The notes under the pieces: model-generated
Database searches by the model: none
Told to the model about the DNA's origin: nothing
Seen by the model: the letters and a program-made list of their open reading frames with translations, nothing else
Program-made: the position numbers and the translations under genes
Part shown: positions 2-52,225 of the stretch, piece by piece
How positions within the stretch are numbered: position 1 is the first letter of the stretch
How the letters are laid out: the number at the start of each line of letters is the position of its first letter
NCBI GenBank assembly: GCA_963797095.1
Contig: CAWCNY010000002.1
Span: 1,088,001-1,152,000, forward strand
Direction: 5' to 3'
Length of the DNA: 64,000 nucleotides
DNA from: an uncultured Chloroflexia bacterium
GTDB lineage: Bacteria; Chloroflexota; Chloroflexia; QHBQ01; JADMIH01

Positions 2-2026
2 TGGATCTATGAGTACACTCCTGGCGATAGCTCCTACGTCCTCAAGAACGCCAGGCTTGATAACTGCCGCTACAGCCTCCGCTTCACCTCCAACATGGCT
101 GGTGGTGTCCTCAACGATGGTACAGGCACCTACATCTATGCCGTTGGTGGCTCCAACGTAGATAGCGTCGCCACCAACATGGTGCGTGTGTACGACCCGG
201 TTGCGGATACAGTCACTACCCTCACCAGCGACCCGTGGCCGGCCAGTCCAACCAGGATACCAGGTGGGTATGCAGTGTACAACAACAAACTGTACATCTT
301 CGGAGGGTACGTATCCCAACCCTCATCAGTGGTGTACTCAGACACATGGGTATTCGACCCGACAGCCTCAGCAGGCTCAAAGTGGTCCCAGATAGCAAGT
401 GCCAACCTGAGTGTAGCCAGAGGGTTCATAGGAGGGGCATCACTCGATGGGTGGCTGTACGCAGTGGGAGGCAACGTCATAACAGGAGTAGTAACCACCA
501 CCGTGACCCCGCAGACAGTGGTGGAGAGGATGGACCCAGGAGCAGGCAGTCCCACATGGCAGGCGGTAGCGAGTTTACCGGTAGCGAGGGGAGATGTAGG
601 AATATGGGCATACGACAGTACAAGCGGGTATGAGATAGGTGGGAAGCTAGTGATAGGGGGAGGGGGGTGGCCGGTACCGGACACGAGTGCCTACATCTAC
701 GACCCCACAACAGACAGTTGGAGCACCTTTGCATCACTGCTAAGGGCGAGGAGGGACGTAGGGCACACAGAGTTAGACGGGAAGCTGTACGCATTTGGAG
801 GGTACAATGTAACAGACAGCTACTATGGTGCCAACGACAGCATGGTCTATGACGCCACTGCCGGGGGTACCACGCCCACCAACACGCCTGTGTTGCCCAC
901 CGGTACGCCTACCAATTCACCAACGCGCACTAACACGCCAAGTAACACACCGCTACCTCCAACAAGCACCTCCACGCGCACGAATACGCCTGTGCCGCCT
1001 ACCAACACGCCTACCAACACGCCTACCAACACGCCTACCAACACCCCAACTAACACTCCAACGGATCCCCCCACTAATACGCCTACCAATATGCCCACCA
1101 ACACGCCTACCAATACCAACACTCCGGTGCCGCAAACTGCCACCAACACAACGGTGCCATCTACGAACACGGCGGTTGCGACCAATACCCCTACCAATAC
1201 GAACACTCCCGTACCTACCAATACCCCAACGAGCACGAACACACCCATAGACACCCCAACCGACACCCCAACCGACACCCCAACCGACACTCCTGTACCG
1301 CCAAGTACTCCCGCCAGCACAGACACGCCCGTGCCTCCAAGTGATACGCCTGTGCCGACAGACACTGCCGTGCCCCCGACTGACACTCCAGTGCTTTCGA
1401 CACCTACTACCTGTACCTTGAGCTTCTCAGATGTTCCGTCCGGCAGCACGTTCTACCCATATGTTATCTGCCTTGCCTGCCACGGCATAGTAACCGGCTA
1501 TCCTGATGGAACGTTCCGCCCGGATAACAATGTGACCAGGGGTCAGCTTGCCAAGATCGTGTCCAACTCGGCAGGGTTCGATGATGTGCCGGGCGCGCAG
1601 ATGTTCGCAGACATAGCACCGGGCTCCACCTTCTTCGATTTCGTTCAGCGTCTCGCCTCTCGCGGGTTTATAGGCGGTTATGCATGTGGCGGATCCGGTG
1701 AGCCTTGTGGAGCAGGCAACCTGCCATACTTCAGGCCGAACAATAACGCCGCGCGTGGGCAGATAGCCAAAATCGTCAGCAGTACGGCGGGCTTTGGCGG
1801 CGACCCTGGCGTACAGATCTTCGAGGATGTGCCGCTAGGCTCCGCCTTCTTCGACTACGCACAGCAACTCGCCATGCGCGGAATAGTGAGCGGTTATGAC
1901 TGCGGCGGGCCGGGAGAGCCGTGCGGTCCAGGCAACAGGCCCTACTTCAGGCCCAACGAGAACGCTACACGCGGGCAGATAGCCAAGATCGTATCTATCA
2001 CTTTCTTCCCGGATTGTGATCTATAG
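2..2026 (+). CDS. Kelch-repeat beta-propeller + Pro/Thr linker + Cys-rich SLH module surface protein (5'-truncated)
   Basis: Frame is open from position 2. Kelch motifs (LYIFGG, LYAVGG, YDP..W), PTNT repeats, three SLH-like repeats (F.DVP.GSTFY, FRP.NN.TRGQ.AKIV). Confidence 0.85.
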
Positions 2027-2090: not shown

Positions 2091-4355
2091 CTAAGAGGTG
2101 CGTTGTGAGCTATCGTAGAAGTACGCCCCTTCGGTGGTCTCGTCCGGGTAGAAGAATGGATAAGCCCCCGACAGCAAGCTGCGCAGCCAGCTTCGCGACA
2201 TTGGCCGCTCCAGGTTGACCACGGGGAAGAGGTCATCCAGGATCGCCCACAGTTTGCCGTCATTGCTCTCACCAACCGCCTCGAAAGCGTTGGCTATGAT
2301 TACTTCCGGCTTCCTGCGGTCGGCATCGTCCAGTTTCTTCTGGTTGTGCAACTTACCGAACTTCTCCTGGGTCAAAAGCATGTTGGGGTCGGTGCCGACC
2401 ACGAACTGCACGGGCCGGAACACCCATCTCCCCTTGCGCTCGTCAAGCTGAATAAGGTTGGCTTCTTCCTCTTCGGTGCGCACGAAGTGTATCTCAAATA
2501 CGTCCTCGCCACGGTCGGTGGGGGTGATGGTGAACTTTGCGCCCGGCACCATATGGTCGGTGAAAAGCTCGCTCAGGCCCATAATGAAGCCGCCCCGGTT
2601 GCCGGTTGGGTATCGTAGCTCGGCAAGGAGGGAGCCGTAGAGTTGTGGCACCTCGAAGCGGAGAAGCGATGCGCGCTGGTCCTCGAAGACACCCCCTGGG
2701 AAGACGCGTTTGAAGCGTAGGTCGTAGGGCAGGACGCCATGCTCGTACTCGTAGTAGGTCAGCGAGTATTCCATCGGCCCGCCGCTGTAGGCACGTATAG
2801 CTTCGTCTTCCTCTTCGGTTTCCAAAACGGTGGGGTCTTCCAGGAAGCGATAGTCCTGCCCGATCTCTGCCGGTTTGCGGGTGGCTGGGGGCAATACAGG
2901 CGACGAGCCTGCGTTCACCCAGAGGCGGTCGCCGTCGATGCCGACGAACTCGAAATCTTTCTTCTCCTTGAGGAGGCGGAAATCGAGTGAGAAGCGCACG
3001 CGATCATATGCCGGGTCATCGAGTCGGCGTCCCAGGACATCGGCCATAATATCGCGATCGGATGCCACACCTCCGGTCTCAGGCTCGTCCAGGTATTCTT
3101 TGATCCTGCGGTAATCGCCTTTACTGAAGCGTTCCGTCGCCTCTTCGGGGAATATGTCGGAGCCGAAAGTAATAAGCCGTGTGTCGTTTTCGACCGCTGC
3201 TGCCATCATACCGCCAAGCGCGGCTGCCACGTTATCATCCAGCAAAATTTCATCGACAGACTGGTTGAGGTCAATTGTAACAGGCCCTTGCTCGGTCGCC
3301 AGCGTAACCTCTACAGGCCCCGTTACGACGGGGGCGGCCGGGGTTGGCGGTGCGGCGGTTGCCGGGCGTGTGGCGGGCGTGGCGGGTGATGTAGGCGTGA
3401 CCGGTGCCGCCGGGGTCGCGGGTTTACCGGCAGCCTGGGCTTCAACCGGGGCTTCTGTGGTTGTATCAGTAACTGTGGTTGTGGCAGGTGGGGTTGCCTC
3501 TTCGGCGGGTGTGGCGACTGGTGTTTCTGCTCGGCGCGCTGCTGCCTCTTCTTCCGGTTTTGTTGTAGTCCGGGCCGCCGTGGTGGGGGTCGTTGGAGTG
3601 GTCGGAGCGGTTGCTGGAGTCGTGGGTACGCTCACGGCAGGTTCGGCCACGCCCTGGGCTTGAGATGTTGCGTTGGCAGCTTCGGCAGGACGTGCGGTAG
3701 GGGCAATTGCTGGAGGTTGTGTTGTAGGCGTGGCAGCGGATGCGGCGGCAGGCGTAGCGGGAGCCTGGACAGTCGGCTCCGGCGGTCGCTCACGGACGAC
3801 TTGCGCTTGCGGGATGAGGGTTGGCTTCTCGGTGCTACGGCTATATGGCGTGGTAGGTAGTGGCGGATATGCCGGGCCGACAACGCTGCGAGATGGCATC
3901 TCTTCTATTTCCACTTCCTCAAGCATGGCGCTCTTCTCGGCGCGGCTACTCGACTGGCTTTGCAGGTGCGTCTTATATTCCTCCGCCTCCTCGGGAGCGA
4001 GCACTGTTGCTTCCTGGTTGAGTCTTTCCCTGAAGGTATGGGTGCTGTCGGCTCCGCCTGTGTTTGGTGCGTGACCTGCCTTGGTGGTTGCGAATTCTCC
4101 GTCGCCCATATCGGCGAACACATCGGGGTTGGCTTGCAGGGCGGCCTCCAACCTCGTTGCGAGGTCCGCCGGCTTGGTGCCCGCGTATGGCCCACCTGCT
4201 TTGGTGAGCATCTCGGCTATGGCTGCGAGCGACATTTTCATGGGCGCATTGACGGCATACAGAGGATATTTACGCTTGACTACATCAAACGCGCGGGCCG
4301 CCATCTCCTGTTCTTCTTTTGTACCGTGAAACGCTACCTGTACTGCTCCTGTCAT
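2091..4355 (-). CDS. Hypothetical multidomain protein (putative winged-helix domains, Pro/Ala/Thr linker)
   Basis: 754-aa ORF with GGAG RBS; globular N- and C-terminal parts around a low-complexity linker. Confidence 0.75.
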   Translation of the reverse strand: MTGAVQVAFHGTKEEQEMAARAFDVVKRKYPLYAVNAPMKMSLAAIAEMLTKAGGPYAGTKPADLATRLEAALQANPDVFADMGDGEFATTKAGHAPNTGGADSTHTFRERLNQEATVLAPEEAEEYKTHLQSQSSSRAEKSAMLEEVEIEEMPSRSVVGPAYPPLPTTPYSRSTEKPTLIPQAQVVRERPPEPTVQAPATPAAASAATPTTQPPAIAPTARPAEAANATSQAQGVAEPAVSVPTTPATAPTTPTTPTTAARTTTKPEEEAAARRAETPVATPAEEATPPATTTVTDTTTEAPVEAQAAGKPATPAAPVTPTSPATPATRPATAAPPTPAAPVVTGPVEVTLATEQGPVTIDLNQSVDEILLDDNVAAALGGMMAAAVENDTRLITFGSDIFPEEATERFSKGDYRRIKEYLDEPETGGVASDRDIMADVLGRRLDDPAYDRVRFSLDFRLLKEKKDFEFVGIDGDRLWVNAGSSPVLPPATRKPAEIGQDYRFLEDPTVLETEEEDEAIRAYSGGPMEYSLTYYEYEHGVLPYDLRFKRVFPGGVFEDQRASLLRFEVPQLYGSLLAELRYPTGNRGGFIMGLSELFTDHMVPGAKFTITPTDRGEDVFEIHFVRTEEEEANLIQLDERKGRWVFRPVQFVVGTDPNMLLTQEKFGKLHNQKKLDDADRRKPEVIIANAFEAVGESNDGKLWAILDDLFPVVNLERPMSRSWLRSLLSGAYPFFYPDETTEGAYFYDSSQRTS

Positions 4356-4430: not shown

Positions 4431-4574
4431 CTATCTTATACCGCGCTCCTCCCGCAACAATTCAATGTAGCGCCGGACCAGCGACTCGATAGTCTGAGGC
4501 TTGCCCGTGCGCCGCATCCAGTCAATAAGGCGCTCCATGTCACGCATGGAAATTGTGATTTCTTTACCTGGCAA
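4431..4574 (-). CDS. Small 47-aa hypothetical protein
   Basis: AAGGAG 5 nt before a TTG start; amphipathic helical sequence; co-oriented with the 754-aa gene. Confidence 0.6.
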   Translation of the reverse strand: MPGKEITISMRDMERLIDWMRRTGKPQTIESLVRRYIELLREERGIR

Positions 4575-4688
4575 TTTAGCTCCTTCTCCTTGGTTCGATC
4601 CATTTACAAATATTAATGGCAACATTGCGCCAAGCTATTTTACCGTATAGAGCCGGGGATGGCAATGCGCACACACATTATGACAAAA

Positions 4689-4717
4689 TTGACAAAGCGG
4701 TCATGCTCGTTTAGAAT
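4689..4717 (+). promoter_or_regulatory. sigma70-type promoter
   Basis: TTGACA-N17-TAGAAT upstream of 4754. Confidence 0.7.
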
Positions 4718-4753: not shown

Positions 4754-5239
4754 ATGGCGTTGAGTGAGATCGCGGCCTGGGTCGCGCTTGGGTTGTCGCT
4801 GGTGCTTCTGGTGCTGTTTGCCTGGCAAACGGTGCGCTTAGGCAATATAGAACGGCGATATAAGGCGCTGACCGGTGGGGAAGGGTCGGGGGGCGCGCCT
4901 ACGCTCGGTGAGCTGGTTGTGGGGCAGGGGCAAAAGCTCGATAAGACCGCCAAAGACCTCTCCGGGCTGACCGATACCGTGAAAACGATGGAGAAATCGG
5001 TGCAGGGGAGCGTACAGCACGTCGGCCTTGTGCGCTTCAACCCCTTTCAGGAGACGGGTGGAGATCAGAGTTTCGCGCTGGCTCTGCTCGATGGTCGCGG
5101 TGATGGCATAGTGATCAGCAGCCTGCACAGCCGGGCCGTGACACGCTTCTACGCCAAGCCTATCAAGGGGGGAGCATCCCAACTGTCGCTTTCCGACGAA
5201 GAGGCGCAGGCGGTACAAATGGCACTACGAAGCCAGTAG
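4754..5239 (+). CDS. DUF4446 family membrane-anchored coiled-coil protein
   Basis: N-terminal TM helix, coiled coil, GLVRFNPF..GGDQSFALALLD...G.V.SSLHSR motif. Confidence 0.85.
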   Translation: MALSEIAAWVALGLSLVLLVLFAWQTVRLGNIERRYKALTGGEGSGGAPTLGELVVGQGQKLDKTAKDLSGLTDTVKTMEKSVQGSVQHVGLVRFNPFQETGGDQSFALALLDGRGDGIVISSLHSRAVTRFYAKPIKGGASQLSLSDEEAQAVQMALRSQ

Positions 5240-5446: not shown

Positions 5447-6628
5447 ATGAGCACGCTTCGCAGTTTGCGGGAGAGAAAAGGATTTACAGTATCGCAGTTG
5501 GCGGCAAAAGCCAGCATCCCTTCCAGGCTTATCGCCGATTATGAAGAGGGCAAGACCTCGATCACCCTCACCCATGCCAGATTGCTTGCCAAAGCCTTGT
5601 GGGTAGGGATCGAGGACCTGATGCCCCCAGCCGGGGCTATACCTCCCTCGCCATCGCAATCGCCGCCTGTGCAGTCCGCACCACCTGTGCAGAGGCAGGC
5701 CCCTTCCCCTCCACAGACGGCCCAGCGTCCGGCGCCGCCCCCTCCGAGGCAAGCGCCCGATCCGGGCACCGGTGGCGGGCAGAGCCAGACCTACGGGCGG
5801 AGCCAGACCTACGGGCAAGCGCAAGGGCAGGGTTACAGGCAGGACAGGCACGATTATCCCGGAGGCCAGAGCACACGTGTGGATACCCCACGTCCCCAAC
5901 GGCCCGCTGGTTATGAAGGCCGAGAGGGTGGTCATGGGCAGCATAGAGGAGCGGGAGATAGCGCGGGTGGTGGCCGTCAGGTGCGCAGCCCGCGCCCTGC
6001 ACCTCCGCCGCCCAGCGCTATTAGCGAGGGCCAGGTCCAGGAGCTTGAACGATTAGCTGTCAAGTTAGAGATTACACTTGAGCAATTGGAAGAGCGAATC
6101 GGCAAGAAGGTGCCGGAGTTGAGCAGGCCCGAAGCCAAAGATTGGATCAAGCGAGTGCGCGGCATGGCGGAGGAACTTGCACCCAGCAAGAAAGCGGCTT
6201 ACGGCCAATGGCCCGGCGGCCACGTCGATCAGGAAGCGTCGTACCTCGCTTCACAGAAAGAGGCAGGTGCCTATTTCCGGTTCAAATTGTTCAACGGAGA
6301 AGAGATCGGCGGCACAATCACCGATTTCACCCCCTACACGATCACGATCAGCTCGAACGGAAGCGGTGATGACGTTGTGCTGCGCAAGCTTGCCATCGCC
6401 TACTACCGGCGTAGCGACCAGCCCGCTGCCGGAGAGGAGCCTGCGTCTGCGGATGCCACTTCCCAGGCAGCCCCAAAGCGCACCCGCGCATCCAAAGCGC
6501 ACGCCCCCACGCATAACCACGAGCGCGACGATCAGCACCAACCTCTCGCTACAGGCATAGATTCCGACCGCCCCGATGAGCCGGGAGCGCCCGAAGTCGA
6601 CAATATGGACGAAGATCGGGGGCTGTAG
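5447..6628 (+). CDS. XRE HTH + disordered linker + Hfq/Sm-like domain fusion protein
   Basis: LRSLRERKGFTVSQLA..YEEG HTH; FKLFNGEEIGGTITDFTPYTITI...VVLRKLAI resembles Hfq Sm1/Sm2 motifs; GGAG RBS. Confidence 0.75.
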   Translation: MSTLRSLRERKGFTVSQLAAKASIPSRLIADYEEGKTSITLTHARLLAKALWVGIEDLMPPAGAIPPSPSQSPPVQSAPPVQRQAPSPPQTAQRPAPPPPRQAPDPGTGGGQSQTYGRSQTYGQAQGQGYRQDRHDYPGGQSTRVDTPRPQRPAGYEGREGGHGQHRGAGDSAGGGRQVRSPRPAPPPPSAISEGQVQELERLAVKLEITLEQLEERIGKKVPELSRPEAKDWIKRVRGMAEELAPSKKAAYGQWPGGHVDQEASYLASQKEAGAYFRFKLFNGEEIGGTITDFTPYTITISSNGSGDDVVLRKLAIAYYRRSDQPAAGEEPASADATSQAAPKRTRASKAHAPTHNHERDDQHQPLATGIDSDRPDEPGAPEVDNMDEDRGL

Positions 6629-6630
6629 CC

Positions 6631-7089
6631 ATGAGCCTGAGCGACTACATAAAGTACCAGAGGGCTTTGAAGGGCGGCCTGACGCCCTGGGAGATCGCGG
6701 AGGGAAGTGGAGTGCCATCGCGCGAGGTGCACCTCATCGAGGTGAAGCACAGGCGCATGGGCGAAGATGACTCCGTCCTTCAGAAACTGGCCGACTACTT
6801 CGGAGTGCCCATAGCTGAGCTTGCGGGCAGGCGCGAGGCATACCGCAAGCGGATGATCTCGTTCCTGGAGGACTATATTCGCGACGAGCGAACGGTGAGC
6901 CTCCGGCTGGAAGGCGGTGAGGAGGTCGGAGGCGTGCCCATCTGGTATTCCAGGGAAGCGGTAGCGCTACGTGCCCAGGATGCAACCGAGGAATCAGATG
7001 ATTTGTGTATAGTGCAGAGGGCATGGGTGGCGGATTGGAAAGCGGGTGACGCGCCTGATTGGGAAGTGGGAGCGCCTGCCACTCTATAG
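6631..7089 (+). CDS. XRE HTH + divergent Hfq/Sm-like domain protein
   Basis: HTH (LTPWEIAEGSGV..IE..LQKLADYFGVP); FLEDYIRDERTVSLRLEGGEEVGG...IVQRAWV Sm-like; starts 2 nt after the upstream stop. Confidence 0.7.
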   Translation: MSLSDYIKYQRALKGGLTPWEIAEGSGVPSREVHLIEVKHRRMGEDDSVLQKLADYFGVPIAELAGRREAYRKRMISFLEDYIRDERTVSLRLEGGEEVGGVPIWYSREAVALRAQDATEESDDLCIVQRAWVADWKAGDAPDWEVGAPATL

Positions 7090-7095
7090 ACACTG

Positions 7096-7122
7096 AGAGA
7101 CCCGCCGCCTGGCGGGTTTTCT
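7096..7122 (+). terminator. Intrinsic terminator closing the HTH-Sm gene pair
   Basis: ACCCGCC-gcct-GGCGGGT followed by TTT. Confidence 0.7.
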
Positions 7123-7128
7123 GTTACT

Positions 7129-8292
7129 ATGGTGAACCCGATGGTAGATGCACAGGCAAGCGCAGGACTAAAGGAAGAACTGGACCCTGAGCGGCAGGAG
7201 AAGGCGCGCCGCTACGCACGTATTCAGCGTATATTTTCGTTCGTTGACCTCGCTATCGTAGCAGTTGTGCTCGTGCTGCTCCTGGTCACTAACCTGTCCA
7301 TTGGTCTTCGTGACTGGGTCGAGGGCATGGGCGGGCCGCGCCTGCTGAGCGTCGCTTTGTACGGAATTGTGGTGAGTGCGGTGTTTATCATCCTCTCATT
7401 GCCCCTCGACTTCTACAGTGATTATGTGCTCCCGAAGCGCTACGGTTTGCTGACTCAGAGCCTGGGCGGGTGGGCGCTCAATTCGGTCAAAAGCCTGGTC
7501 CTAACGGGTGTGCTGGGGCTGCTGGGGCTTGAGGCGTTATACATCTTGCTCGATGCCTGGCCTCAGTGGTGGTGGGTCGCGATGGCGGCTCTGCTGTGGC
7601 TCTTCTCGGTGGCGGCTGCGTGGCTTGCGCCTTTACTGCTCATGCCTCTCTTCTACAAGTTCAAGCCTCTCGACGATCCTGAGTTGGTGGCCCGACTTAC
7701 CAGGCTGGCAGAACAGGCCGGGACGCGGGTAGAGGGCGTCTATGTGATGGATATGAGCAGCAGGACTACCGCCGCCAATGCCATGCTGGCGGGTATGGGC
7801 AGCACCCGCCGTATCATCCTGGGCGATACCTTGCTGGCTAATTATACTTACGACGAAATAGAAACGGTGCTGGCCCACGAGTTGGCTCACCACGTGCACA
7901 ACGACCTGCTGCTAGGGTTGGCCGCCCAGGCCGTCATTATCACTGTGGGCATGTGGGTTGCCTCTGTGCTGCTTGCCTGGGGTGTTGGAGCCTTTGGGTT
8001 CAGCAGTGTTGCCGACATAGCGGCCTTGCCGTTATTCGTGCTGACAATGAGCGTCTTCGGACTTGTGACAGCCCCTCTTGTCAACTTCCTATCGAGGGGC
8101 AGAGAGCGCGCCGCTGACCTATACGCCCTGAAGACCACAGGCAACGTGCAGGCGTTCCGCTCGATGATGCTCAAGTTAGCAAACCAGAACCTCTCGGACG
8201 CCAACCCACCCGCCTGGGTGCGCATAATGTTCTACAGCCACCCGCCCGTAGCCGAAAGAGTAAAGCTGGCCGAAGCAAGAAGTGAGACGTGA
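7129..8292 (+). CDS. M48 family (Ste24-like) membrane zinc metallopeptidase
   Basis: Multiple TM helices, ANA..G.G..RRI.L.DTL, HELAH, E..AD, YSHPP..ER. Confidence 0.92.
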   Translation: MVNPMVDAQASAGLKEELDPERQEKARRYARIQRIFSFVDLAIVAVVLVLLLVTNLSIGLRDWVEGMGGPRLLSVALYGIVVSAVFIILSLPLDFYSDYVLPKRYGLLTQSLGGWALNSVKSLVLTGVLGLLGLEALYILLDAWPQWWWVAMAALLWLFSVAAAWLAPLLLMPLFYKFKPLDDPELVARLTRLAEQAGTRVEGVYVMDMSSRTTAANAMLAGMGSTRRIILGDTLLANYTYDEIETVLAHELAHHVHNDLLLGLAAQAVIITVGMWVASVLLAWGVGAFGFSSVADIAALPLFVLTMSVFGLVTAPLVNFLSRGRERAADLYALKTTGNVQAFRSMMLKLANQNLSDANPPAWVRIMFYSHPPVAERVKLAEARSET

Positions 8293-8397: not shown

Positions 8398-8512
8398 AAC
8401 ACCAGGATCGAGCATCAAGCAGAAAAGCACCAGCAACCAAAGGTCCACATCCGGTGATCAGAAGTCGCAATCAGGAAGTAGGAACTAGGAACCAGGAACT
8501 CGCTACATCTCC

Positions 8513-8541
8513 TTGCAGTATAGTGAGCAGCAGACTATAAT
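8513..8541 (+). promoter_or_regulatory. sigma70-type promoter
   Basis: TTGCAG-N17-TATAAT. Confidence 0.6.
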
Positions 8542-8592
8542 CGCATGCTAGGTGGGAGTGCGATCCTCATTCGATTGGAAAGGAGCGGTCTC

Positions 8593-9351
8593 ATGGGGGA
8601 ATTGGTACGCATTGGCCTGGTTGGTGAATACAACGCGAACGTGAAGGCGCATAAAGCTTTGCCAATCGCGCTTGCTATGGCAGCCGAGCAGGTTGGCTGC
8701 GACGTAGAGACCGTGTGGCTTACCACTCCTCAACTTGCCGAAGACCTTGACCATGCCAGGCGGCTCGACGGTATCTGGGTAACGCCGAACAGCCCTTACG
8801 CAAGCCTGGAGGGCGCTCTCGGCGTGATCAGGATGGCGCGAGAAGAGCACAAACCCTTCATGGGCACATGCGGCGGCTTCCAGCACGTCCTCATAGAGTA
8901 CGCACGCGATGTGCTTGGCATCCTCGATGCGGAACATGCCGAATCGAACCCCGATGCTTCGGTGCTTTTCGTCACCCCATTAGTGTGCGCCTTGCGCGAC
9001 GTCAAAGGCCCGATCTATCTCAGGCCAGGGTCTAGGATCAGCCGCATCTACGGTGTTGAGGAGACATTAGAAGAGTATAATTGCGGGTTCGGCCTCAACC
9101 CCACCTATCGAGCGATGATCGAAGAGAGCGCGGCCGAGATCACAGGCCGGGACATCGAGGGAGATGCGCGAGTGCTCGAATTGTCCGCCGAGCGCCACCC
9201 CTTCTTCATAGCAACCCTCTACCAGCCTGAACGGTCGGCGCTGGCTGGCGAGCGCCACCCATTGATTACGGCCTACATGCAGGCCGTTATGCAGACAAAG
9301 AGCGCGGTGGCTCAGTTTAGCACTGCCGAGCGACTACCGGTAGGACGGTAA
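8593..9351 (+). CDS. Stand-alone CTP synthase C-terminal-like glutamine amidotransferase domain protein
   Basis: IGLVGEY, LDGIW, GTCGGFQH, HPFFIATLYQPER; AAGGAG RBS before ATG 8593. Confidence 0.85.
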   Translation: MGELVRIGLVGEYNANVKAHKALPIALAMAAEQVGCDVETVWLTTPQLAEDLDHARRLDGIWVTPNSPYASLEGALGVIRMAREEHKPFMGTCGGFQHVLIEYARDVLGILDAEHAESNPDASVLFVTPLVCALRDVKGPIYLRPGSRISRIYGVEETLEEYNCGFGLNPTYRAMIEESAAEITGRDIEGDARVLELSAERHPFFIATLYQPERSALAGERHPLITAYMQAVMQTKSAVAQFSTAERLPVGR

Positions 9352-22557: not shown

Positions 22558-22902
22558 TTAGTCGTTGGTTCCCAATTCCTCTAAGATAACTGAAATGGAT
22601 TGCTTGAGTGGTGGCAGATCCTTGTGCGTGATTTCCCAGACAGCATTTAGATCGACGCCCATATAGTCGTGTACCAGCACATCGCCTAAGCCGGCAATCC
22701 GTCGCCAGGGCACAGCTATATATTCAGATCGCAAGTCTTCTGATAATCGCTTGGTTGCTTCACCAATGATCTCAAGTTGTCGGATTATAGCATCTTGCCA
22801 ATGCGATTGCTCCATGAAAGCTTCTTTTCCGACGGCTGCATATAGCTCGATCTTTTCAATCGCATCTCGGATATGTTGCAGATAGAGCGCGTCGCCTATC
22901 AC
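22558..22902 (-). CDS. HEPN/DUF86 (HepT-like) toxin, probably catalytically inactive
   Basis: DA..R.LEIIGEA, PW..IAG.GD.L.HDY.GVD...VW; Gly replaces the catalytic Arg. Confidence 0.88.
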   Translation of the reverse strand: MIGDALYLQHIRDAIEKIELYAAVGKEAFMEQSHWQDAIIRQLEIIGEATKRLSEDLRSEYIAVPWRRIAGLGDVLVHDYMGVDLNAVWEITHKDLPPLKQSISVILEELGTND

Positions 22903-23189
22903 AAATTTGTTGCTTCTTGAAGCACTTGCTCACGTATATATGGGCTTAGGGCTGCTTCCGTTACCACATCTACCTCGCATTTGAGCAGATCCTCGAGGTC
23001 CTGCTTGATTGCTGTCAGATCAAGCAGGCTGTAACCTGGTTCAAGACGGACAAGTAGGTCAAGGTCACTTTCAGGCCCAGCTTCGCCACGTGCCACCGAG
23101 CCAAAGACGCGCACATCTTTGGCGCCATGTTCCGACGCAATTCGCAATATATCCCGTCGTTTGCTTCGAATATCATAAGCTGTGTTCAT
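22899..23189 (-). CDS. Minimal nucleotidyltransferase antitoxin (MntA-like)
   Basis: VFGSVARGE...SDLDLLV; 4-nt overlap with the HEPN gene. Confidence 0.9.
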   Translation of the reverse strand: MNTAYDIRSKRRDILRIASEHGAKDVRVFGSVARGEAGPESDLDLLVRLEPGYSLLDLTAIKQDLEDLLKCEVDVVTEAALSPYIREQVLQEATNL

Positions 23190-29843: not shown

Positions 29844-31141
29844 GGACTCTCAAGAAATTAACAAGCCTGGGAGTAGAGTGGAGCAGGAGTGATGTCGAGA
29901 AACCATTTGCCCAACGTTTTATGGCGTATGAGTTGCCCTTCTACTGCCTTCATCGCCTCTTTGCTCAGTTTCACCCCACTGGCATACCTTGTTGTCACCA
30001 GTTCCACTGCCGGTCGGCGCCCCTTCCAGGTCATCGTCCCCGCATACGCAATTACTGCCTCTATGGAGTCGAGTAATGCACCGTTCCAATGGTTTTCCAG
30101 GATGCCCCAACAGCGCTCAACCGCATTGTACTTGCTGTGGTACGGTGGGTAGTAAGCCAGCCGCACCTTTATCCCGTAGTCCGATGCGAAATTCAGCAGT
30201 CGCTGCACGAATTGGGTGCGCCGACTGTGGTTCTCCGGTCCATTATCCAGATTGATCACCAGCGTCCTGATTGTGGCGAAGCGACTGCGCACGCTCTGCC
30301 ACCACTGCTCCAGACAATCGACCAGGCAGTCACTCGTCACTTTGGAAGTAATGCCATATAGAAACAATTCGTTCGACTGGGGTAGCATAATCCCCACTGG
30401 CGTCACCTTTGCCAGCGCTTCAAAGTCGTGGTCAGCGGCTGCGGTCGGCACACGAGACTTACCACCACGGGAGAATGGCCCGACTAAAACAGCCGCTTTG
30501 GCGTCCATAGAAATGCGCAATTCCCTCTCATTAGCATCGGCTGCGCGATTGACCGCATTTACTTGCTCGAAGATGGCATCAGTTTGGGGGACTTTTTTTG
30601 GGGTTGCGACTTGGCAACCTTCTTGGGGTAGTAGCCCAGGTCATTCAACTTGCCCCCGATGGTTTCTGGGGTAGGCAACTGCGGGTCGGTGTAGCCCTTT
30701 TGCGCGATCAACTGACGGCGCACTTCGGCGGCAGAGAGGCGGGTATAGAGGCGGTTAGTACGAAACTGAGGATCAGCCTGGCTCTGGCTATCGACTATAG
30801 CTTGCAGATCCGGTAATAGGTTGGGCAGATGAACTTCTGACCGCTTGCGGCCACGCGCAGCGAAAGCATCGACACATCTGATGCCAGTGTCAAGTTCATG
30901 GATACCTTTGCGAATAGTCATGCGGCCCCAGTGCAGTTCACGGGCTGCGAGAGCTTGACCACCAGGACCGAGTTCTTTGACGGTACGGGCCATAAACAAG
31001 CGGCGGTCACTGCCTTTGAGGGACTTAGCGGTCTCGATTAGCATTGTCTTGAGAGAGTTGGTTAGTTCCATCAACATACCTCCAGAGTGTGATCACTGGA
31101 GTATAACACCAGAAGAGGCTAGTTTATTCATCGAGAGTCCC
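29843..31141 (-). mobile_element. ISAzo13-family insertion sequence
   Basis: Terminal IRs GGGACTCTC / GAGAGTCCC with TTA duplicated on both flanks; transposase inside. Confidence 0.9.
29858..31077 (-). CDS. ISAzo13 DDE transposase split by a programmed -1 frameshift
   Basis: ORF A 30559-31077 plus ORF B; A-AAA-AAG at 30592-30598 gives QKK-VPQTDAIF...ISMDAK, DNGPEN, YYPPYHSKYN..ER.W. Confidence 0.85.
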
Positions 31142-41818: not shown

Positions 41819-43180
41819 CAGGGCTGATGCAAAGTCGAAATAGAGGAAAAGAGGATAGACAAGCAAATAGCACCCGCTTGGGATAAGATGCGAGTTGCAA
41901 CAACCATCAAACCCAAGAAAGGTGCTATGTGAGATGAAATGTACCATGCTCCCCCTTGACGTGCAACTGCCCCAAGAGCCATTCGCCTTCAGTCTGCAAG
42001 CTCTTGTAGAGAAACTACACTCAGTACAAGATCTGCGAGATCCAAGAGGAGTGCGCTACCCATTGAGTGTGGTGCTGACAGTGGCCGTGCTCGCCAAGCT
42101 GGCGGGTCACAGCCAGTTGAGGGCTGTGGCTGAGTGGGCCTCCTTGCGCTCAGAACAACTCTGCTCGCTGCTGGGTTTTGGCAGAACTACTCTGCCACAC
42201 CCTACCACCTGGGGGCGCATCTTTGGCACAGCTCTCGACCCTTGTGCTCTGGACCAGGTGGTAGGGGAGTACTTCAAGGAGTTGTGTCAGCCTTCTATAC
42301 ACAGGAAGCGCAATCGTCGAGGAGGGTTGGTGCTCACCATTGACGGCAAGACGCTGAGGGGTACGATCCCGTTGGGCAACACACAAGGAGTGCATCTGGT
42401 GTGTGCCTACTTACCACAGGTGGGAGTGGTGCTGGCTCAAGTAGAGGTAAAACACAAGGCTAACGAGTTGACAGTGGCTCCCACTCTCCTTGCCCAACTT
42501 GACCTTGAAGGTGTAGTGGTAACAGGAGATGCTATGTTTGCCCAGCGCAATCTATCTGCTCAGATCGTTAGAGGGGGAGGAGATTACCTGTGGAAGGTGA
42601 AGGAGAACCAACCGGAGTTGCTCGCCGATATCCGCACGCTGTTTGATCCTCCACCTGCCCTCCAACCGACCAGGACTGAGGCTCCAAACTTCGCCTTGCC
42701 CTCCGATCTAGAGTGGGCAAGCAGTGTGAGCAAAGGGCATGGACGAATAGAAGAGCGCACAATATGGGTGAGTTCGGCTCTGTGTGGGTACTCAGATTGG
42801 CCGCATTTGGAGCAGGTGTTCAAGCTCAAGTGCCGGGTGGTAGACGGATTGGGTCAGATAAAGGAGATGGTGCATTACGGAGTAACCTCTCTGCCAAGTG
42901 CAGCAGGGTCGCCCCGCAGGCTCTTGGCGGTGGTAAGAGAGCATTGGGGAATAGAGAACGGGTTGCACTATCGCCGAGATGTAAGCCTGGACGAGGACTA
43001 TTCCCAGGTAAGGGTAGGACATGCACCGCGTGTACTGGCGACTCTCAACAACATTGTGGTAGGGTTAGCAGCTCATCATGAGCAAGCAAATCTGCCTGCT
43101 GCTCAACGCGCCTTCCACTACCGCTTGGAGCGTGCCCTTTGGACGAGGTCCCTCTCATGATAGACTTTGCATCAGCCCTG
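41819..43180 (+). mobile_element. ISAs1-family insertion sequence
   Basis: 18-bp IRs CAGGGCTGATGCAAAGTC / GACTTTGCATCAGCCCTG; 10-bp TSD GTTTGACATC. Confidence 0.95.
41934..43160 (+). CDS. ISAs1 transposase
   Basis: D.R..RG.RY.L, IDGKTLRG, NE, VTGDAM, K.NQ, HGRIE.R, HWGIENGLHY.RDV...ED. Confidence 0.95.
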   Translation: MKCTMLPLDVQLPQEPFAFSLQALVEKLHSVQDLRDPRGVRYPLSVVLTVAVLAKLAGHSQLRAVAEWASLRSEQLCSLLGFGRTTLPHPTTWGRIFGTALDPCALDQVVGEYFKELCQPSIHRKRNRRGGLVLTIDGKTLRGTIPLGNTQGVHLVCAYLPQVGVVLAQVEVKHKANELTVAPTLLAQLDLEGVVVTGDAMFAQRNLSAQIVRGGGDYLWKVKENQPELLADIRTLFDPPPALQPTRTEAPNFALPSDLEWASSVSKGHGRIEERTIWVSSALCGYSDWPHLEQVFKLKCRVVDGLGQIKEMVHYGVTSLPSAAGSPRRLLAVVREHWGIENGLHYRRDVSLDEDYSQVRVGHAPRVLATLNNIVVGLAAHHEQANLPAAQRAFHYRLERALWTRSLS

Positions 43181-44145: not shown

Positions 44146-47100
44146 CTACCTCGATGGTGTCTGGCAACCGGGTAAGAATGTGTTAGCCACTATCTTACTC
44201 GCCTGTCCTCTGGTGGCATTGGAGCCTGGCCTGAAGTATGGCAGGTTGGCAGGGCCTACACATGGCTCTCCCACTCCTCCACATGCGTACCCGTTCATCA
44301 CTCCCAATGCTGTCAGCCTCCAGATGTACTCGTAGAATGTTGACCCTGGCAGCACGTCCTGGAACTGCTGAGAGCCTGCCGGTGCTGTCAGCCCTGCTGC
44401 ATTCGAGATTATCTTCGAGATTTGCCCTCTCGTGATGTTCGCATTAGGTCTGAAGTACGGCAGGTTGCCTGCACCACACGGTTCTCCTGCTCCACCACAA
44501 GGGTAGCCGTTGACATACCCTCTGATGGTCAGCTGCCAGATGTACTCAAAGAAGGTAGAGCCAAGAGGCACATCTTCATACTGCTGAGGACCTGTTGGGT
44601 CGTTGAAGCCAGCAGCATTGGAGGCTATCTTTGCGAGTTGTCCCCTGGTGACCAGGTTAGCAGGCTTGAAGCAAGGGTTACCTGTATCACAGCCTGACGA
44701 GTAGCCGTTGATAATGCCTCTACAAGCCAGGCACTTGATGTTGTCGTAGAACGTTGAGCCAGGCAGCACATCGGTGAACTCAAGGGTACATGCTGTGGGG
44801 GTAGCTGTCACCTCTCCCGGCGTATTCGTGGGGGCCACAGATGTAGACGTAGATGTTGCACCAGGAGGCGAGGTAGACGTTGCACCAGGCGGTGAGGTAG
44901 ATGTGGCGGTAGCGGGTGGTGAGGTAGATGTTGAAGTGGCAGGTGGTGACGTAGATGTGGCGGGCGGTGTGGTAGCTGTCGATGTGGCGGGTATAGGTGT
45001 TATCGTAGGCGTGCCGCACGGTGGCGCTGAATAGGAAAGTAGCAGGCCATCGCTGATGGCAGTAAAGCACGAGTACTGTGTGAATTGAGTGGGGTTCCTC
45101 TGCACACCCAGCGTGGCATCATCGCCTGTCAGGCCCATTGTGCCGTAGATTACGTCGAACTTGTTCTGCCCTTCGTACAGGCGTATTTCGTAGTTGGTGT
45201 CGGTGCCGGGCTCGCATGTGGTAGATGTGTTGTACCCGCACGTTCTGAACTCCATATTGTAGATGCGGTTAGGTTCTACGCCGGATATGGATGTAAAGAC
45301 ACCCTTGCCGGAAGGCGTAGTGAGTTGGTCATCCCAGAAGGGGAAGATGGCGTAGTCGGTGATTGCAGCGCTCGCCAGGCAGTCATTATCGTATTCGTCG
45401 TTAGTAGAGACGAATTGCAGGTTGCCGTTAGAGCTTACATTGACCCCTGAGAACTGCTGGTCATAAAGTTGCACGGGGAACGGCAGGCTGACAAAGGTCA
45501 TGCCGTCGTCGGTATGGTTGCCGATATCGTTTGTGCCCGGCACGATAGTGGCCGTGCCTGTGGCGACCGTGTAGTCCATAGCGCAGGCGGGCGTAGGCGT
45601 GGGTGTCCCCGGCGTGGGAGTGGTAGTAGGCGTCCCGCCTCCTCCTGTGCAAGGGTTGATCTCCACGGTATAAGACTCGCAGCCGAGGTTAGGCGAAAGC
45701 TCGTGTACCACCACGACCACGGCGTGCCCCGCCGGCACATTGACTGAGTAGCTGTATTGTGGGCCTCCTATGTCTCCATAGTCGCCCAGGTAGTTCTGAG
45801 CCAGGCTGGCCGGGTTGAACGTATCGAGGTAGGCGGCGCTACCTGTGGTGTTATCGCTACAGGCATTTGTCACTCGTATTGTGACGCATTGTGACACTGC
45901 TGTAGTGTTGGTATAGACGTAGGTGTCGTAGTGCCGCACGAAACCGTCGGCGGTGACTGAGCCGCTGTTTGGTGAAGCGCACGAGCTAGGCGGGTGGCCC
46001 CTGTTCACACGGCCTGTCTGGGTTGGGTCGCTGTTGGTGATCACGCCCGTGTATGAGACGTAACCTGTGCACGGTGTAGGGCTTGGTGGTGGCGTGGTAG
46101 GGGTCGGGTAAACTCCGGTAGCGGTCGGTACAGGGGTTGATGTACCGCCTGTGCAGCCGGGGAACTTGAATGAGCCGATGCGTGTTCGCCAGTTGCGCGG
46201 GCCGGTCTGGGCGAAGTACTCGGTGGTGTACCAGAAGGTGCAGTCGTCCAGCGGGTCGATGGAGATGCTGCTATAGTCGCCCCAGCGCGGTGCGGCGGCA
46301 TTGGTCTCGGACCCACCGCCCGCTATGAGCGTTTCTTCTCCCTGCGACATCTGCCCCAGCGGGTCGCCCGCCAATCTACCTGCGTACCTTATCTCTGGGT
46401 AGATCGATGAGCTTGACGCACTGAAGCCGATTGCCATATCCCCCACATGGTCGAAGGTGATACTGCCCATCCACCGGAATATGCCGTCGGCAGGCGAGTA
46501 TGTCCCCTCCTGGTAGACGGTAGGCGTGCCGTTAGGGTCGCGCAATTCATACCAGCGCGGGCCTACGGTCGATCCCGTATCGATGGTGTAATTGAGCGCA
46601 AGGGCCTCGTGGTCTCCGAAGTTGCGGTAGGCCAGCCTGTACATCAACCTGTCATTAAGGGGATCGACCTGCACCGATGTGCCCAATTGTGGTATCCCGC
46701 CCCGGTTGATGGTGAAGGGCGTGACCGCCAGGGAGGTGGGGCCTGTAAAGGTCGAGTTGGAGGGGGTGGTCCAGTCTACATGGAATTTGTAGAGGGCCAG
46801 GTGCGAGAGGTCGGGGTAGGTTACGAAGTAGTTCGGGCTGCCGGCCGGAGGTAGAGCGCCATCCAGGTCGGATGGAAGAAGGCCGCCGTCGGAGGAGCCG
46901 AAGAAGACCATGCGAGCCGTCGGGTCGCCCTCAAGCATGCGGGCCCGCTCGAAAGCGAAGTTGCCGCCGTTGTAGGGACCACCAAACTCGTTGGAGGTCA
47001 TGTAGTACGCATCGGGCCACACGCCAAAGTGCGGGTAGTCCTCGAATGCACCGGGGGTGGGGCCGGATACGAAGTCGTAGCGATAATAGGTGCCCGCCGC

Positions 47101-47778
47101 GTCCTCGCTGGCCGAGATTGCGATGCACTGGTGGCTAGGGGTATTGGTAGTAAACTGGCTGATGAGCCACCTGCCCGCCATCGAGTCGTACAGGCCGATG
47201 ACATCGCCATCATTATTGCTTTCGCACTGGCCGCCGAAGCCGGTCCAGATGGTGTTCATGTTGGTGGGGCCGTAGATAGACGTGCCGTTCCTGGCGAACA
47301 CCTCGAATGTGGAGTTGACCGTCTGTACGTACTGGTTGCGCCCGATGTCGCCGTTGGTGTCGGGCGGTATGTAGCCATCGAGGTTGTACTGGCCCTCGAA
47401 GTTGGCTTCGGGGGTTGGCATTGTAAGAGGACCAGCCAGTTGCTGCCGGGTGGGGTCATCTCCCTTTAGGGTATCGCCGCCGGTGACGTTGCGCCGTTCA
47501 TGCCAGTTTTCGTCGGGGCGCGTCTTGGGTGTGAGCTTGATCGGGTATTCGCGTATAGGGAGCGAGATATCGCTCCTGGCCGGGTAGCGGATGATAGGCT
47601 CGCCTGCGGCCAGCTTGCGGGCATCACCCTGCCAGTCGATGGTGGTCTCGTCGGTTGTCATCACCTTGACACGTGTGCCCGCGCTGGTCGATACAATCGA
47701 GTTGAGCGCGCTGAGGCCCGTGACGATGGCAAGCAGCATGAAAAGAGTGACGACTATACGGGTTGGCCTGTTTCTCAT
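44146..47778 (-). CDS. Secreted multidomain surface protein (PPDT..G / RWGDYS domain, NIDO-like domain, Cys-rich SLH module)
   Basis: Signal peptide, Pro/Thr linkers, three SLH-like repeats; AAGGAG RBS. Confidence 0.82.
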   Translation of the reverse strand: MRNRPTRIVVTLFMLLAIVTGLSALNSIVSTSAGTRVKVMTTDETTIDWQGDARKLAAGEPIIRYPARSDISLPIREYPIKLTPKTRPDENWHERRNVTGGDTLKGDDPTRQQLAGPLTMPTPEANFEGQYNLDGYIPPDTNGDIGRNQYVQTVNSTFEVFARNGTSIYGPTNMNTIWTGFGGQCESNNDGDVIGLYDSMAGRWLISQFTTNTPSHQCIAISASEDAAGTYYRYDFVSGPTPGAFEDYPHFGVWPDAYYMTSNEFGGPYNGGNFAFERARMLEGDPTARMVFFGSSDGGLLPSDLDGALPPAGSPNYFVTYPDLSHLALYKFHVDWTTPSNSTFTGPTSLAVTPFTINRGGIPQLGTSVQVDPLNDRLMYRLAYRNFGDHEALALNYTIDTGSTVGPRWYELRDPNGTPTVYQEGTYSPADGIFRWMGSITFDHVGDMAIGFSASSSSIYPEIRYAGRLAGDPLGQMSQGEETLIAGGGSETNAAAPRWGDYSSISIDPLDDCTFWYTTEYFAQTGPRNWRTRIGSFKFPGCTGGTSTPVPTATGVYPTPTTPPPSPTPCTGYVSYTGVITNSDPTQTGRVNRGHPPSSCASPNSGSVTADGFVRHYDTYVYTNTTAVSQCVTIRVTNACSDNTTGSAAYLDTFNPASLAQNYLGDYGDIGGPQYSYSVNVPAGHAVVVVVHELSPNLGCESYTVEINPCTGGGGTPTTTPTPGTPTPTPACAMDYTVATGTATIVPGTNDIGNHTDDGMTFVSLPFPVQLYDQQFSGVNVSSNGNLQFVSTNDEYDNDCLASAAITDYAIFPFWDDQLTTPSGKGVFTSISGVEPNRIYNMEFRTCGYNTSTTCEPGTDTNYEIRLYEGQNKFDVIYGTMGLTGDDATLGVQRNPTQFTQYSCFTAISDGLLLSYSAPPCGTPTITPIPATSTATTPPATSTSPPATSTSTSPPATATSTSPPGATSTSPPGATSTSTSVAPTNTPGEVTATPTACTLEFTDVLPGSTFYDNIKCLACRGIINGYSSGCDTGNPCFKPANLVTRGQLAKIASNAAGFNDPTGPQQYEDVPLGSTFFEYIWQLTIRGYVNGYPCGGAGEPCGAGNLPYFRPNANITRGQISKIISNAAGLTAPAGSQQFQDVLPGSTFYEYIWRLTALGVMNGYACGGVGEPCVGPANLPYFRPGSNATRGQASKIVANTFLPGCQTPSR

Positions 47779-47964
47779 ACTTGGCTCCTTCCTTCCTCAC
47801 CTGATATGTGAAACGTGACAAATGGCTATCGTCTTTGGTCCCTTGAAATATCGGCAAATATATTCTTTCCCCTGCCGGGGACCAGGACCTGCCAATTGTA
47901 CATCCATAACCACGCCCGCGCTAGCCTTTTGGCACAAGCATTTTGGTAAATTTGCGAGGTAGTC

Positions 47965-48030
47965 GGATTCGCCGTCATATACTAAATGGCATTGATAGCA
48001 CAAATCTGGACAGGTTTTGGGGTGTACTTT
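47965..48030 (-). repeat. Dispersed ~65-bp element, copy C
   Basis: Reverse complement matches copy A over the first 31 nt plus CAATGCCATTTAGTA. Confidence 0.85.
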
Positions 48031-48077
48031 CGGGTGGTTTCCGGATGTAGATGCACCAGTATGGCAGTTTAGATCTC

Positions 48078-48107
48078 GTAGAGCGCGAGGCATGCCTAGC
48101 CCCTACA
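48078..48107 (-). repeat. GTAG-type REP palindrome
   Basis: TGTAGGGGCTAGGCATGCCTCGCGCTCTAC on the minus strand. Confidence 0.6.
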
Positions 48108-48163
48108 AGTGGATTTCATGAGGGTTCGCCTAGATTATTCGTTGGTTCGTCGTCTTTCGTCCT

Positions 48164-52159: not shown

Positions 52160-52198
52160 CGGATGCCCCTCCTCCATGAATGATATAGATTGTGGTAC

Positions 52199-52224
52199 AA
52201 AAAAGCCCAGGCAGTGGCCGGGCT
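52199..52224 (-). terminator. Intrinsic terminator
   Basis: AGCCCgGCCAC..GCCTGGGCT followed by TTTTTT on the minus strand. Confidence 0.65.
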
Positions 52225-52225
52225 A

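Follow-up and report, generated by a model that had tools for sequence, protein, structure and literature searches.

The 64,000 bp window analyzed here (positions 1,088,001 to 1,152,000 of contig CAWCNY010000002.1, from an uncultured Chloroflexia bacterium) contains two adjacent rightwards-transcribed genes, gene 1 and gene 2, whose products each join an N-terminal helix-turn-helix (HTH), of the XRE type in gene 1 and XRE-like in gene 2, to a C-terminal domain with the Sm fold of Hfq. The two genes are paralogues by profile comparison, they are kept together in other Chloroflexia genomes, and their Sm domains are predicted to associate edge to edge. The TAG stop codon of gene 1 (6626-6628) is separated by 2 nt from the ATG of gene 2 (6631), and 11 bases past gene 2 there begins a hairpin (7100-7117) with a 7-bp G+C-rich stem and a 4-nt loop, followed by a T-rich tail (Table 1). 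The hairpin folds at -17.2 kcal/mol (z -3.4; 2 of 200 shuffled sequences are equally stable) and is likely an intrinsic terminator; a consensus terminator scan of the window does not list it, and a similar hairpin 3' of gene 2 is not prominent in most of the related loci. An earlier reading of this DNA made from its sequence alone (the sequence-only reading) had described two closely coupled genes with a shared terminator; the coupling and a likely terminator are both found. The relatives of gene 1 and gene 2 are in Chloroflexia or Chloroflexota wherever the source gives an organism, and both genes are real.

The domain layout of the gene 1 product is taken from an alignment of 40 family members together with an AlphaFold2 (AF2) model. 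The HTH_3 match (residues 4-56, E 1.9e-11) scores 44.3 bits, above the cut-off of 23, all 40 relatives match this family (PF01381), and the family profile matches solved XRE regulators including DdrO and lambda-repressor-like chains. The linker varies in length and sequence among the relatives, its alignment columns being gappy and unconserved. Beyond it lies a domain of three helices (194-206, 211-218 and 227-244) with predicted local distance difference test (pLDDT) scores of 90-94; a Pfam scan of six members gave nothing better than E 0.047, an Atlas search gave no usable match, and its profile weakly resembles that of gene 1's own HTH (hhalign 51%, E 1.5e-4). A whole-profile hhalign comparison suggested that the gene 2 HTH corresponds to this three-helix domain, which is rejected by the domain-wise comparison (10%, versus 78% for the gene 1 HTH). 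The Sm domain is modelled at pLDDT 88-97 over residues 261-320, its best-conserved motifs are the DFTPYTI and VLRKLAIAYY stretches, and G289, Y297, T298, K314, L315, A316, Y319 and Y320 are invariant in the alignment. In 19 of 27 copies, the window's among them, the protein ends in DRG followed by one more residue, and the acidic terminal motif is missing from the eight most distant loci (L021-L028). Matches to HTH_25 in 39 of the 40 relatives raised the possibility of a RodZ-like protein, which we reject because no hydrophobic membrane-spanning stretch is evident on reading the linker sequence and DUF4115 is not among the Pfam matches listed.

The shorter gene 2 product is modelled by AF2 with a mean pLDDT of 86.6 and a predicted template modelling (pTM) score of 0.79. 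The third helix of its HTH is invariant (H34, L35 and E37-R41), and 25 of the 35 relatives sampled for Pfam counts match HTH_3 at E<=1 (best 1.2e-4). The HTH profiles of the two genes align with one another (hhalign 78%, E 1.8e-5). The N-terminal XRE HTH claimed previously for each protein is clear for gene 1; for gene 2 the Pfam match is sub-threshold, and the five-helix model and the profile alignment point to a divergent, XRE-like form. An invariant basic stretch (R67, R68, R72 and K73) stands at the start of the Sm helix, and the Sm domain (71-138) continues with strands at 89-93, 98-106, 110-114, 125-129 and 133-138. The whole-chain pTM suggests that the HTH packs in a fixed position on its own Sm domain, in what would be a close, rigid mounting.

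Table 1. Features of the gene pair and its immediate neighbours, in window coordinates
Feature	Coordinates	Strand	Extent	Basis or remark
Gene 1	5447..6628	+	393 aa	Open reading frame (ORF); 97 relatives at E<=1e-3
Gene 1, XRE/Cro-C1 HTH	5447..5626	+	residues 1-60	Pfam HTH_3; AF2 pLDDT 90-97
Gene 1, disordered linker, Pro/Gln/Ala/Gly-rich	5627..6010	+	residues 61-188	pLDDT 41-57, no secondary structure
Gene 1, three-helix domain, conserved, no known family	6011..6181	+	residues 189-245	AF2
Gene 1, Hfq-like Sm domain, helix and five strands	6230..6415	+	residues 262-323	AF2, Foldseek, profile
Gene 1, C-terminal acidic motif (ends ...DNMDEDRGL), disordered tail	6548..6625	+		Conserved in the 40-member alignment
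Gene 2	6631..7089	+	152 aa	ORF; 177 relatives at E<=1e-3
Gene 2, XRE-like HTH, five helices	6631..6828	+	residues 1-66	AF2 (helices in 3-65), alignment, hhalign
Gene 2, basic stretch and Sm domain	6829..7044	+	residues 67-138	Alignment, AF2, Foldseek, profile
Hairpin and T-rich tail, likely intrinsic terminator	7100..7125	+		3' of gene 2
DUF4446 protein, upstream neighbour (context only)	4754..5239	+		Pfam DUF4446 E 9.9e-40
Membrane M48 (Ste24/HtpX-like) zinc metalloprotease, downstream neighbour (context only)	7129..8292	+		Pfam

The C-terminal domains of both proteins are, on the combined evidence of models and profiles, Hfq-type Sm folds, each having the helix at the N-terminus and the five sharply bent strands that characterize Hfq (template modelling [TM] scores 0.71-0.90 overall and 0.77-0.90 for the best matches). 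Foldseek searches of the PDB return top matches that, among those listed, are all Hfq, both for the gene 1 model (TM on target 0.73-0.90) and for the gene 2 model (0.71-0.88); the identities are 9-24% and the root mean square deviations 1.2-4.6 A over 58-77 columns. The gene 1 family profile reaches the Bacillus subtilis Hfq chain 3ahu (E 1.4e-4 to 3.1e-4), and the gene 2 family profile reaches the solved Hfq chain 6gwk (E 0.033) as well as 3hfn and 3hfo. The comparison used two Pfam families, Hfq (PF17209) and a cyanobacterial family called 'Hfq related' (PF21979). Matches to Pfam Hfq at E<=1 are found in 35 of the 40 gene 1 relatives (best 8.6e-5; sub-threshold but consistent), and of the 35 gene 2 relatives 32 give an Hfq_1 match at E<=1 (best 3.6e-5) and 14 an Hfq match. 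Automated annotation had recognized this relationship: the JGI pipeline named 17 of the 97 gene 1 relatives as Hfq ('sRNA-binding regulator protein Hfq') or as XRE-plus-Hfq, and the Atlas cluster nearest to gene 2 (167 members, Chloroflexota) is auto-named 'Hfq related/Helix-turn-helix'. The Hfq likeness noted by eye is therefore well founded. The size of a stand-alone Hfq (~70-100 aa) is not matched by either protein, each of which carries an HTH, and a search for short relatives (42-135 aa) of the gene 1 Sm domain found only two, one 117 aa and the other 127 aa long, and the contig that carries one of these is only 554 nt in length.

The Sm domain of gene 1 is related to that of gene 2 far beyond chance (hhalign 93% probability, E 2.8e-7, ~18% identity), and with both the Sm domains and the HTHs related, the profile comparisons make gene 1 and gene 2 paralogues, in agreement with the sequence-only reading. 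We surveyed 28 loci, one genome per species, all of them metagenome-assembled genomes of Chloroflexia or Chloroflexota and with gene 2 identities of 53-79%. In 26 of them gene 1 immediately precedes gene 2 (three of these being truncated by a contig end), and 16 of these 26, or 17 of 27 copies when the window is counted, have the two genes spaced by only -4 to +3 nt. The earlier supposition that the pair is conserved is borne out by these counts, and we conclude from the gene order that it is a conserved operon of the Chloroflexia and usually translationally coupled. Fold, paralogy and conservation of the pair are all firmly supported.

The architecture extends beyond these close relatives. 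A full-library search with the gene 1 Sm domain (residues 254-330) returned 91 cluster representatives at E<=1e-3, of which 55 were scanned against Pfam; the 36 omitted comprise 20 close gene 1 relatives, six short fragments and ten long multi-stretch proteins. Among the 55, an XRE-type HTH is present at E<=0.01 in 34, a sub-threshold Hfq or Hfq_1 match in 40, and a single fragment, P0251, passes the Pfam Hfq cut-off (28.8 versus 27 bits). The sequences that were inspected have the gene 1 layout, with an HTH, a Pro-rich linker, a three-helix domain and an Sm domain ending in KLAIAYY; this shared layout indicates that the XRE-Hfq-like architecture is a family of some breadth rather than a one-off. 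Both domains are already recognized by automated pipelines, and the XRE-Hfq pair would be an uncharacterized regulator architecture. The literature search found no paper on XRE-Hfq fusions, and none on Hfq in Chloroflexus, Roseiflexus or Chloroflexota or on DUF4446. The same library search contains giant proteins that repeatedly match the strand 2-strand 3 hairpin of the gene 1 Sm domain: P0220 (5745 aa), P0226 (2416 aa), P0253, P0257 and P0259 have 29, 15, 12, 6 and 6 matching stretches respectively, and P0220 is the top match of the search (E 5.9e-34). These may be repeat proteins built from a similar beta-hairpin.

Prediction of a 1:1 complex between gene 1 residues 190-328 and gene 2 residues 1-148 was run three times, with three controls. 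The interaction prediction scores from aligned errors (ipSAE) are 0.67, 0.57 and 0.61 (median 0.61), compared with 0.01 for the best of the three controls; at least 76% of the contacts are shared among runs and the partner pLDDT is at least 74. In calibration, 58 of 80 solved complexes attained the pass mark, as did 2 of 110 mismatched pairs; this calibration is only approximate here as our own alignments were used. The tightest predicted contacts form two sets, one joining strand 5 of gene 1 (317-321) to strand 4 of gene 2 (125-129) and the other joining the gene 1 Sm helix (261-273) to residues 105-112 of gene 2, and the invariant E263 of gene 1 falls within the interface. This is the edge contact made by neighbouring subunits in an Hfq ring. 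The predicted interface thus passes its controls, and of the earlier proposal that the paralogues co-assemble into a ring, the edge-to-edge pairing finds this much support; the ring itself, its stoichiometry and any preference for the hetero-complex go beyond what the 1:1 prediction says.

We propose, giving it about an even chance, that this conserved operon encodes two paralogous DNA-binding proteins whose C-terminal Hfq-type Sm domains mediate their co-assembly. Those domains would form the oligomerization core, with strand 5 of gene 1 paired to strand 4 of gene 2 in a contact of the Hfq-ring type, and the HTH domains would provide DNA recognition. With the gene 2 HTH apparently held rigidly on its Sm domain and the gene 1 HTH on a disordered tether of ~130 residues, the complex would carry two different kinds of DNA-reading head, and it would probably act as a transcription regulator or a nucleoid-associated factor. 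The conserved pore-side motifs of the Sm core may bind a ligand, for which single-stranded nucleic acid is the obvious candidate, and a ligand-binding core would give the complex a mode of action similar to that of PafBC and other HTH-WYL regulators. DNA binding, like the assembly into a dimer or a ring and any sensing of a ligand or RNA, is inferred.

Several observations weigh against this proposal. The HTH_3 match of gene 2 itself (E 0.017, 15.6 bits) is below the cut-off of 23, the gap between the genes is 21-157 nt in 10 of the 27 copies, and in two of the 28 loci, L001 and L008, gene 2 has no adjoining gene 1. The L008 contig is long and has a Rieske-like ORF upstream of gene 2; in the 3.1-kb contig of L001 other sequence lies upstream and gene 1 is missing, which may reflect either a genomic rearrangement or a false join made during assembly. 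When the sequences preceding gene 1 are compared among 23 loci and the window they have no overall alignment, and no operator was identified in them. The complex prediction may have passed through memory of solved Hfq hexamers; its pass shows likeness to Hfq and does not separate hetero- from homo-oligomers, nor a ring from a dimer. An alternating ring would need a second edge contact, of gene 2 strand 5 with gene 1 strand 4, besides the one predicted. Replacements of Hfq pocket residues (see below) weaken the RNA-sensing part of what the sequence-only reading had proposed.

The same structural evidence would also fit two separate homo-oligomers, for example homohexameric rings, with the adjacency of the genes arising from tandem duplication and shared regulation and with no hetero-complex being formed. 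To our knowledge every characterized bacterial Hfq forms a homohexamer, solved Hfq hexamers are among the Foldseek matches, the predicted interface is a generic Sm edge contact that would probably be predicted for homomers too, and L008 retains gene 2 apart from gene 1. We nonetheless consider this unlikely given the tight coupling in 17 of 27 copies and adjacency in 26 of 28 loci; moreover the Sm domains have diverged to ~18% identity with different invariant residues, which suits complementary roles better than redundant rings.

Hfq is a stand-alone, single-gene RNA chaperone, and a further alternative is that the pair simply constitutes the true Hfq of these bacteria, as chaperones for small-RNA regulation that carry extra domains, whose main business is RNA and in which the acidic tail of gene 1 is autoregulatory. 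The acidic C-terminal tips of the Escherichia coli and Caulobacter Hfq proteins autoregulate RNA binding, and an acidic motif is likewise conserved at the C-terminus of gene 1. The Hfq fold of both Sm domains, the JGI Hfq names and the one fragment that reaches the Pfam Hfq cut-off are all consistent with this. However, the window proteins themselves score only 12.0 bits (gene 1 against Pfam Hfq, E 0.17) and 19.7 bits (gene 2 against Hfq_1, E 9.5e-4), under the 27-bit cut-off, and 14.4 bits against NCBIfam Hfq_rel_Cyano, under its cut-off of 52. The pocket residues point both ways. With E. coli Hfq residue numbers, and with the equivalences drawn from our alignments, the pocket aromatic (F42) is the invariant Y297 in gene 1 and E109 in gene 2; the Sm2 lysine (K56) is the invariant K314 in gene 1 and, by hhalign, R130 in gene 2; the Sm2 histidine (H57) is replaced by the invariant L315 in gene 1 and by A131 in gene 2 (hhalign); Q8 is replaced by the invariant E263 in gene 1 and by a hydrophobic residue in gene 2; and the distal tyrosine (Y25) is a lysine in gene 1. 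With these replacements, no more than half of the canonical uridine pocket survives in gene 1, and gene 2 has lost most of it. A canonical XRE HTH is hard to account for in a pure RNA chaperone as well, and we think it quite improbable that these are simply Hfq proteins. The two best-conserved stretches of the gene 1 Sm domain nevertheless correspond to those that border the pore face and the edges between subunits in Hfq, a pattern compatible with a role in ligand binding or in assembly.

Considered as a co-assembling pair, the window proteins resemble Hfq further in the Sm1-like and Sm2-like motifs of gene 1 and in the predicted strand 4 to strand 5 edge pairing, and differ from it in being two diverged paralogues rather than one gene, in their fusion to an XRE HTH, and in the long linker and three-helix domain of gene 1. 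The nearest characterized functional analogue is PafBC. According to PMC6789036, PafBC and other HTH-WYL regulators combine an HTH with a domain of Sm fold that is similar to Hfq and believed to recognize a nucleic-acid ligand; PafB and PafC themselves are closely homologous, are encoded in tandem in one operon and act as a heterodimer. The window pair likewise consists of tandem paralogues in one operon that join an HTH to an Sm fold, although the hetero-complex is here a prediction only. The claim of the sequence-only reading that no characterized system has this architecture must therefore be narrowed: HTH-WYL proteins, as presented in PMC6789036, do join an HTH to an Sm fold. Neither window protein matches a WYL family at E<=1 in Pfam, and none is found among the Pfam families of the relatives (for gene 1 relatives, the best 25 of 30 families listed), from which we conclude that the pair does not belong to the HTH-WYL family. 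The window HTHs are of XRE type and not winged, no WCX extension is seen, and the Sm domains are nearer to true Hfq in their motifs and predicted edge-to-edge contact.

Other known assemblies share parts of this arrangement. In the eukaryotic Sm/LSm hetero-heptamers and the archaeal SmAPs, as would be the case here, paralogous Sm subunits assemble by strand 4-strand 5 pairing. However, the best structural matches listed for the window proteins are all Hfq and not LSm, an archaeal Lsm chain appears in the sequence search only at E 1.6, and the window has two paralogues rather than seven, each with an HTH and with a hetero contact predicted at 1:1. In lambda CI, SinR and DdrO, too, an XRE HTH at the N-terminus precedes a C-terminal module for joining subunits, but this is not an Hfq-type Sm module, and the window encodes two different subunits. 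In its most elaborate form the co-assembly proposal becomes a mixed Hfq-type ring, the first known bacterial hetero-Sm ring, with two kinds of HTH, in which single-stranded RNA or DNA at the pore side switches operator binding or DNA bridging and the acidic tail of gene 1 competes for the basic patch of gene 2; we regard this as distinctly unlikely. What the locus does present is an Hfq fold wired to DNA-binding heads and duplicated, the two copies having diverged but stayed side by side throughout a bacterial class, and it connects the separate fields of Hfq and of the HTH-WYL regulators with their Sm-fold sensor domain. Should the two proteins co-assemble, bacteria too would have evolved mixed Sm assemblies, and this would be a natural case of an Hfq core serving as the hub of a DNA-binding regulator, opening the RNA and transcription biology of the Chloroflexia, about which we know of almost nothing.

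The gene downstream of the pair raises the question of a protease-controlled repressor, in which the M48 enzyme would cut the gene 1 tether and free the HTH from the Sm core. BlaI/BlaR1, DdrO/IrrE and CapH/CapP are repressor systems controlled by proteolysis. The M48 gene, whose ATG (7129) is immediately 3' of the hairpin, is present downstream of gene 2 in 24 of the 28 loci and directly adjacent in 20; the 128-residue disordered linker of gene 1 would offer a site of cleavage, the gene 1 HTH resembles those of DdrO and CapH (PADLOC E 4.3e-7, HTH only), and the enzyme weakly matches the BlaR1 M56 peptidase (E 1e-4). It is nevertheless a membrane M48 of the Ste24/HtpX type with the five-helix N-terminal domain (Peptidase_M48 E 5.8e-28, Peptidase_M48_N E 2.1e-25) and not an ImmA/IrrE-type (COG2856) peptidase as in ImmR/ImmA, DdrO/IrrE and CapH/CapP, and PADLOC found no CapP. 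In addition, the terminator-like hairpin lies between gene 2 and the M48 gene, the distant clade has a Crp-like gene between the two, L022 and L028 have no M48 gene in the 8 kb downstream, and conserved order among related genomes is weak evidence when taken alone. We consider this very unlikely. A role in a mobile element, toxin-antitoxin or defence system is rejected, as tblastn of gene 2 against phages and of the C-terminal half of gene 1 against plasmids gave no match, PADLOC found no defence-system match beyond the generic HTH, and the synteny around the pair is chromosomal.

The distant loci have features of their own on either side of the pair. In seven of the 23 loci compared upstream of gene 1 (L021-L025, L027 and L028) there is a conserved TTGCAxGG followed after ~17 nt by TATAAT, and directly after this promoter-like pair a palindrome, CTGTGTTGCCACACAG or nearly so; both elements lie ~60-100 nt before the gene 1 start (as at ~6930-7030 in L023). 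The palindrome, which is not seen in the window's own region upstream of gene 1, could be an autoregulatory operator or a 5' hairpin. Close 3' of gene 2 and before the M48 gene, L023 contains a 242-aa ORF (8418-9146, + strand) that is also present in L025, L026 and L027; reading of its translation suggests a Crp/FNR-type protein with a cyclic-nucleotide-binding-like N-terminus and a C-terminal HTH. In L001 at ~380-540, 5' of gene 2 and after the end of a membrane-protein ORF, there is a short tandem repeat, one frame of which reads DGGRWTV several times.

Upstream of the pair, the DUF4446 gene precedes gene 1 in 16 of the 28 loci, and in the window a near-consensus promoter-like site lies at 4689-4717, 5' of this gene. 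Divergent from it are a 64-aa ORF (4431-4625, - strand) and, adjoining this, the gene for a 754-aa protein (2091-4355, - strand) with a long Pro/Thr/Ala-rich centre and no Pfam family; the region between (4637-4717) has near-consensus promoter-like sites on both strands, and the order of these two ORFs is kept in L002-L004 with identities of 62-64% for the 754-aa protein and 62-86% for the 64-aa ORF. The rest of the window, as seen in a Pfam scan of ORFs of at least 90 aa (an hfq gene would be ~80 aa), is ordinary chromosome, including genes for SLH-domain wall proteins, RNase Y, SpoVS and thymidylate kinase, among others. At 22561-23189 (- strand) the gene for a HepT-like ribonuclease (114 aa) adjoins one for a nucleotidyltransferase (96 aa), lodged between pseudouridine synthase and epimerase genes, a HepT/MNT pair typical of toxin-antitoxin systems. 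An ISAzo13-type DDE transposase at 29861-31077 (- strand) is divided between two ORFs (172 and 220 aa) that match different parts of the Pfam model, which suggests a frameshift or a broken copy, and a second transposase, DDE_Tnp_1, at 41895-43157 (+ strand) is intact. The SLH-domain proteins are cell-surface proteins of a wall-bearing Chloroflexia bacterium: one with Kelch repeats is encoded at 95-2023 (+ strand), and three very large ones (1210, 1337 and 1050 aa) are encoded consecutively at 44149-55378 (- strand), one of these having an M14 carboxypeptidase domain and another beta-propeller repeats.

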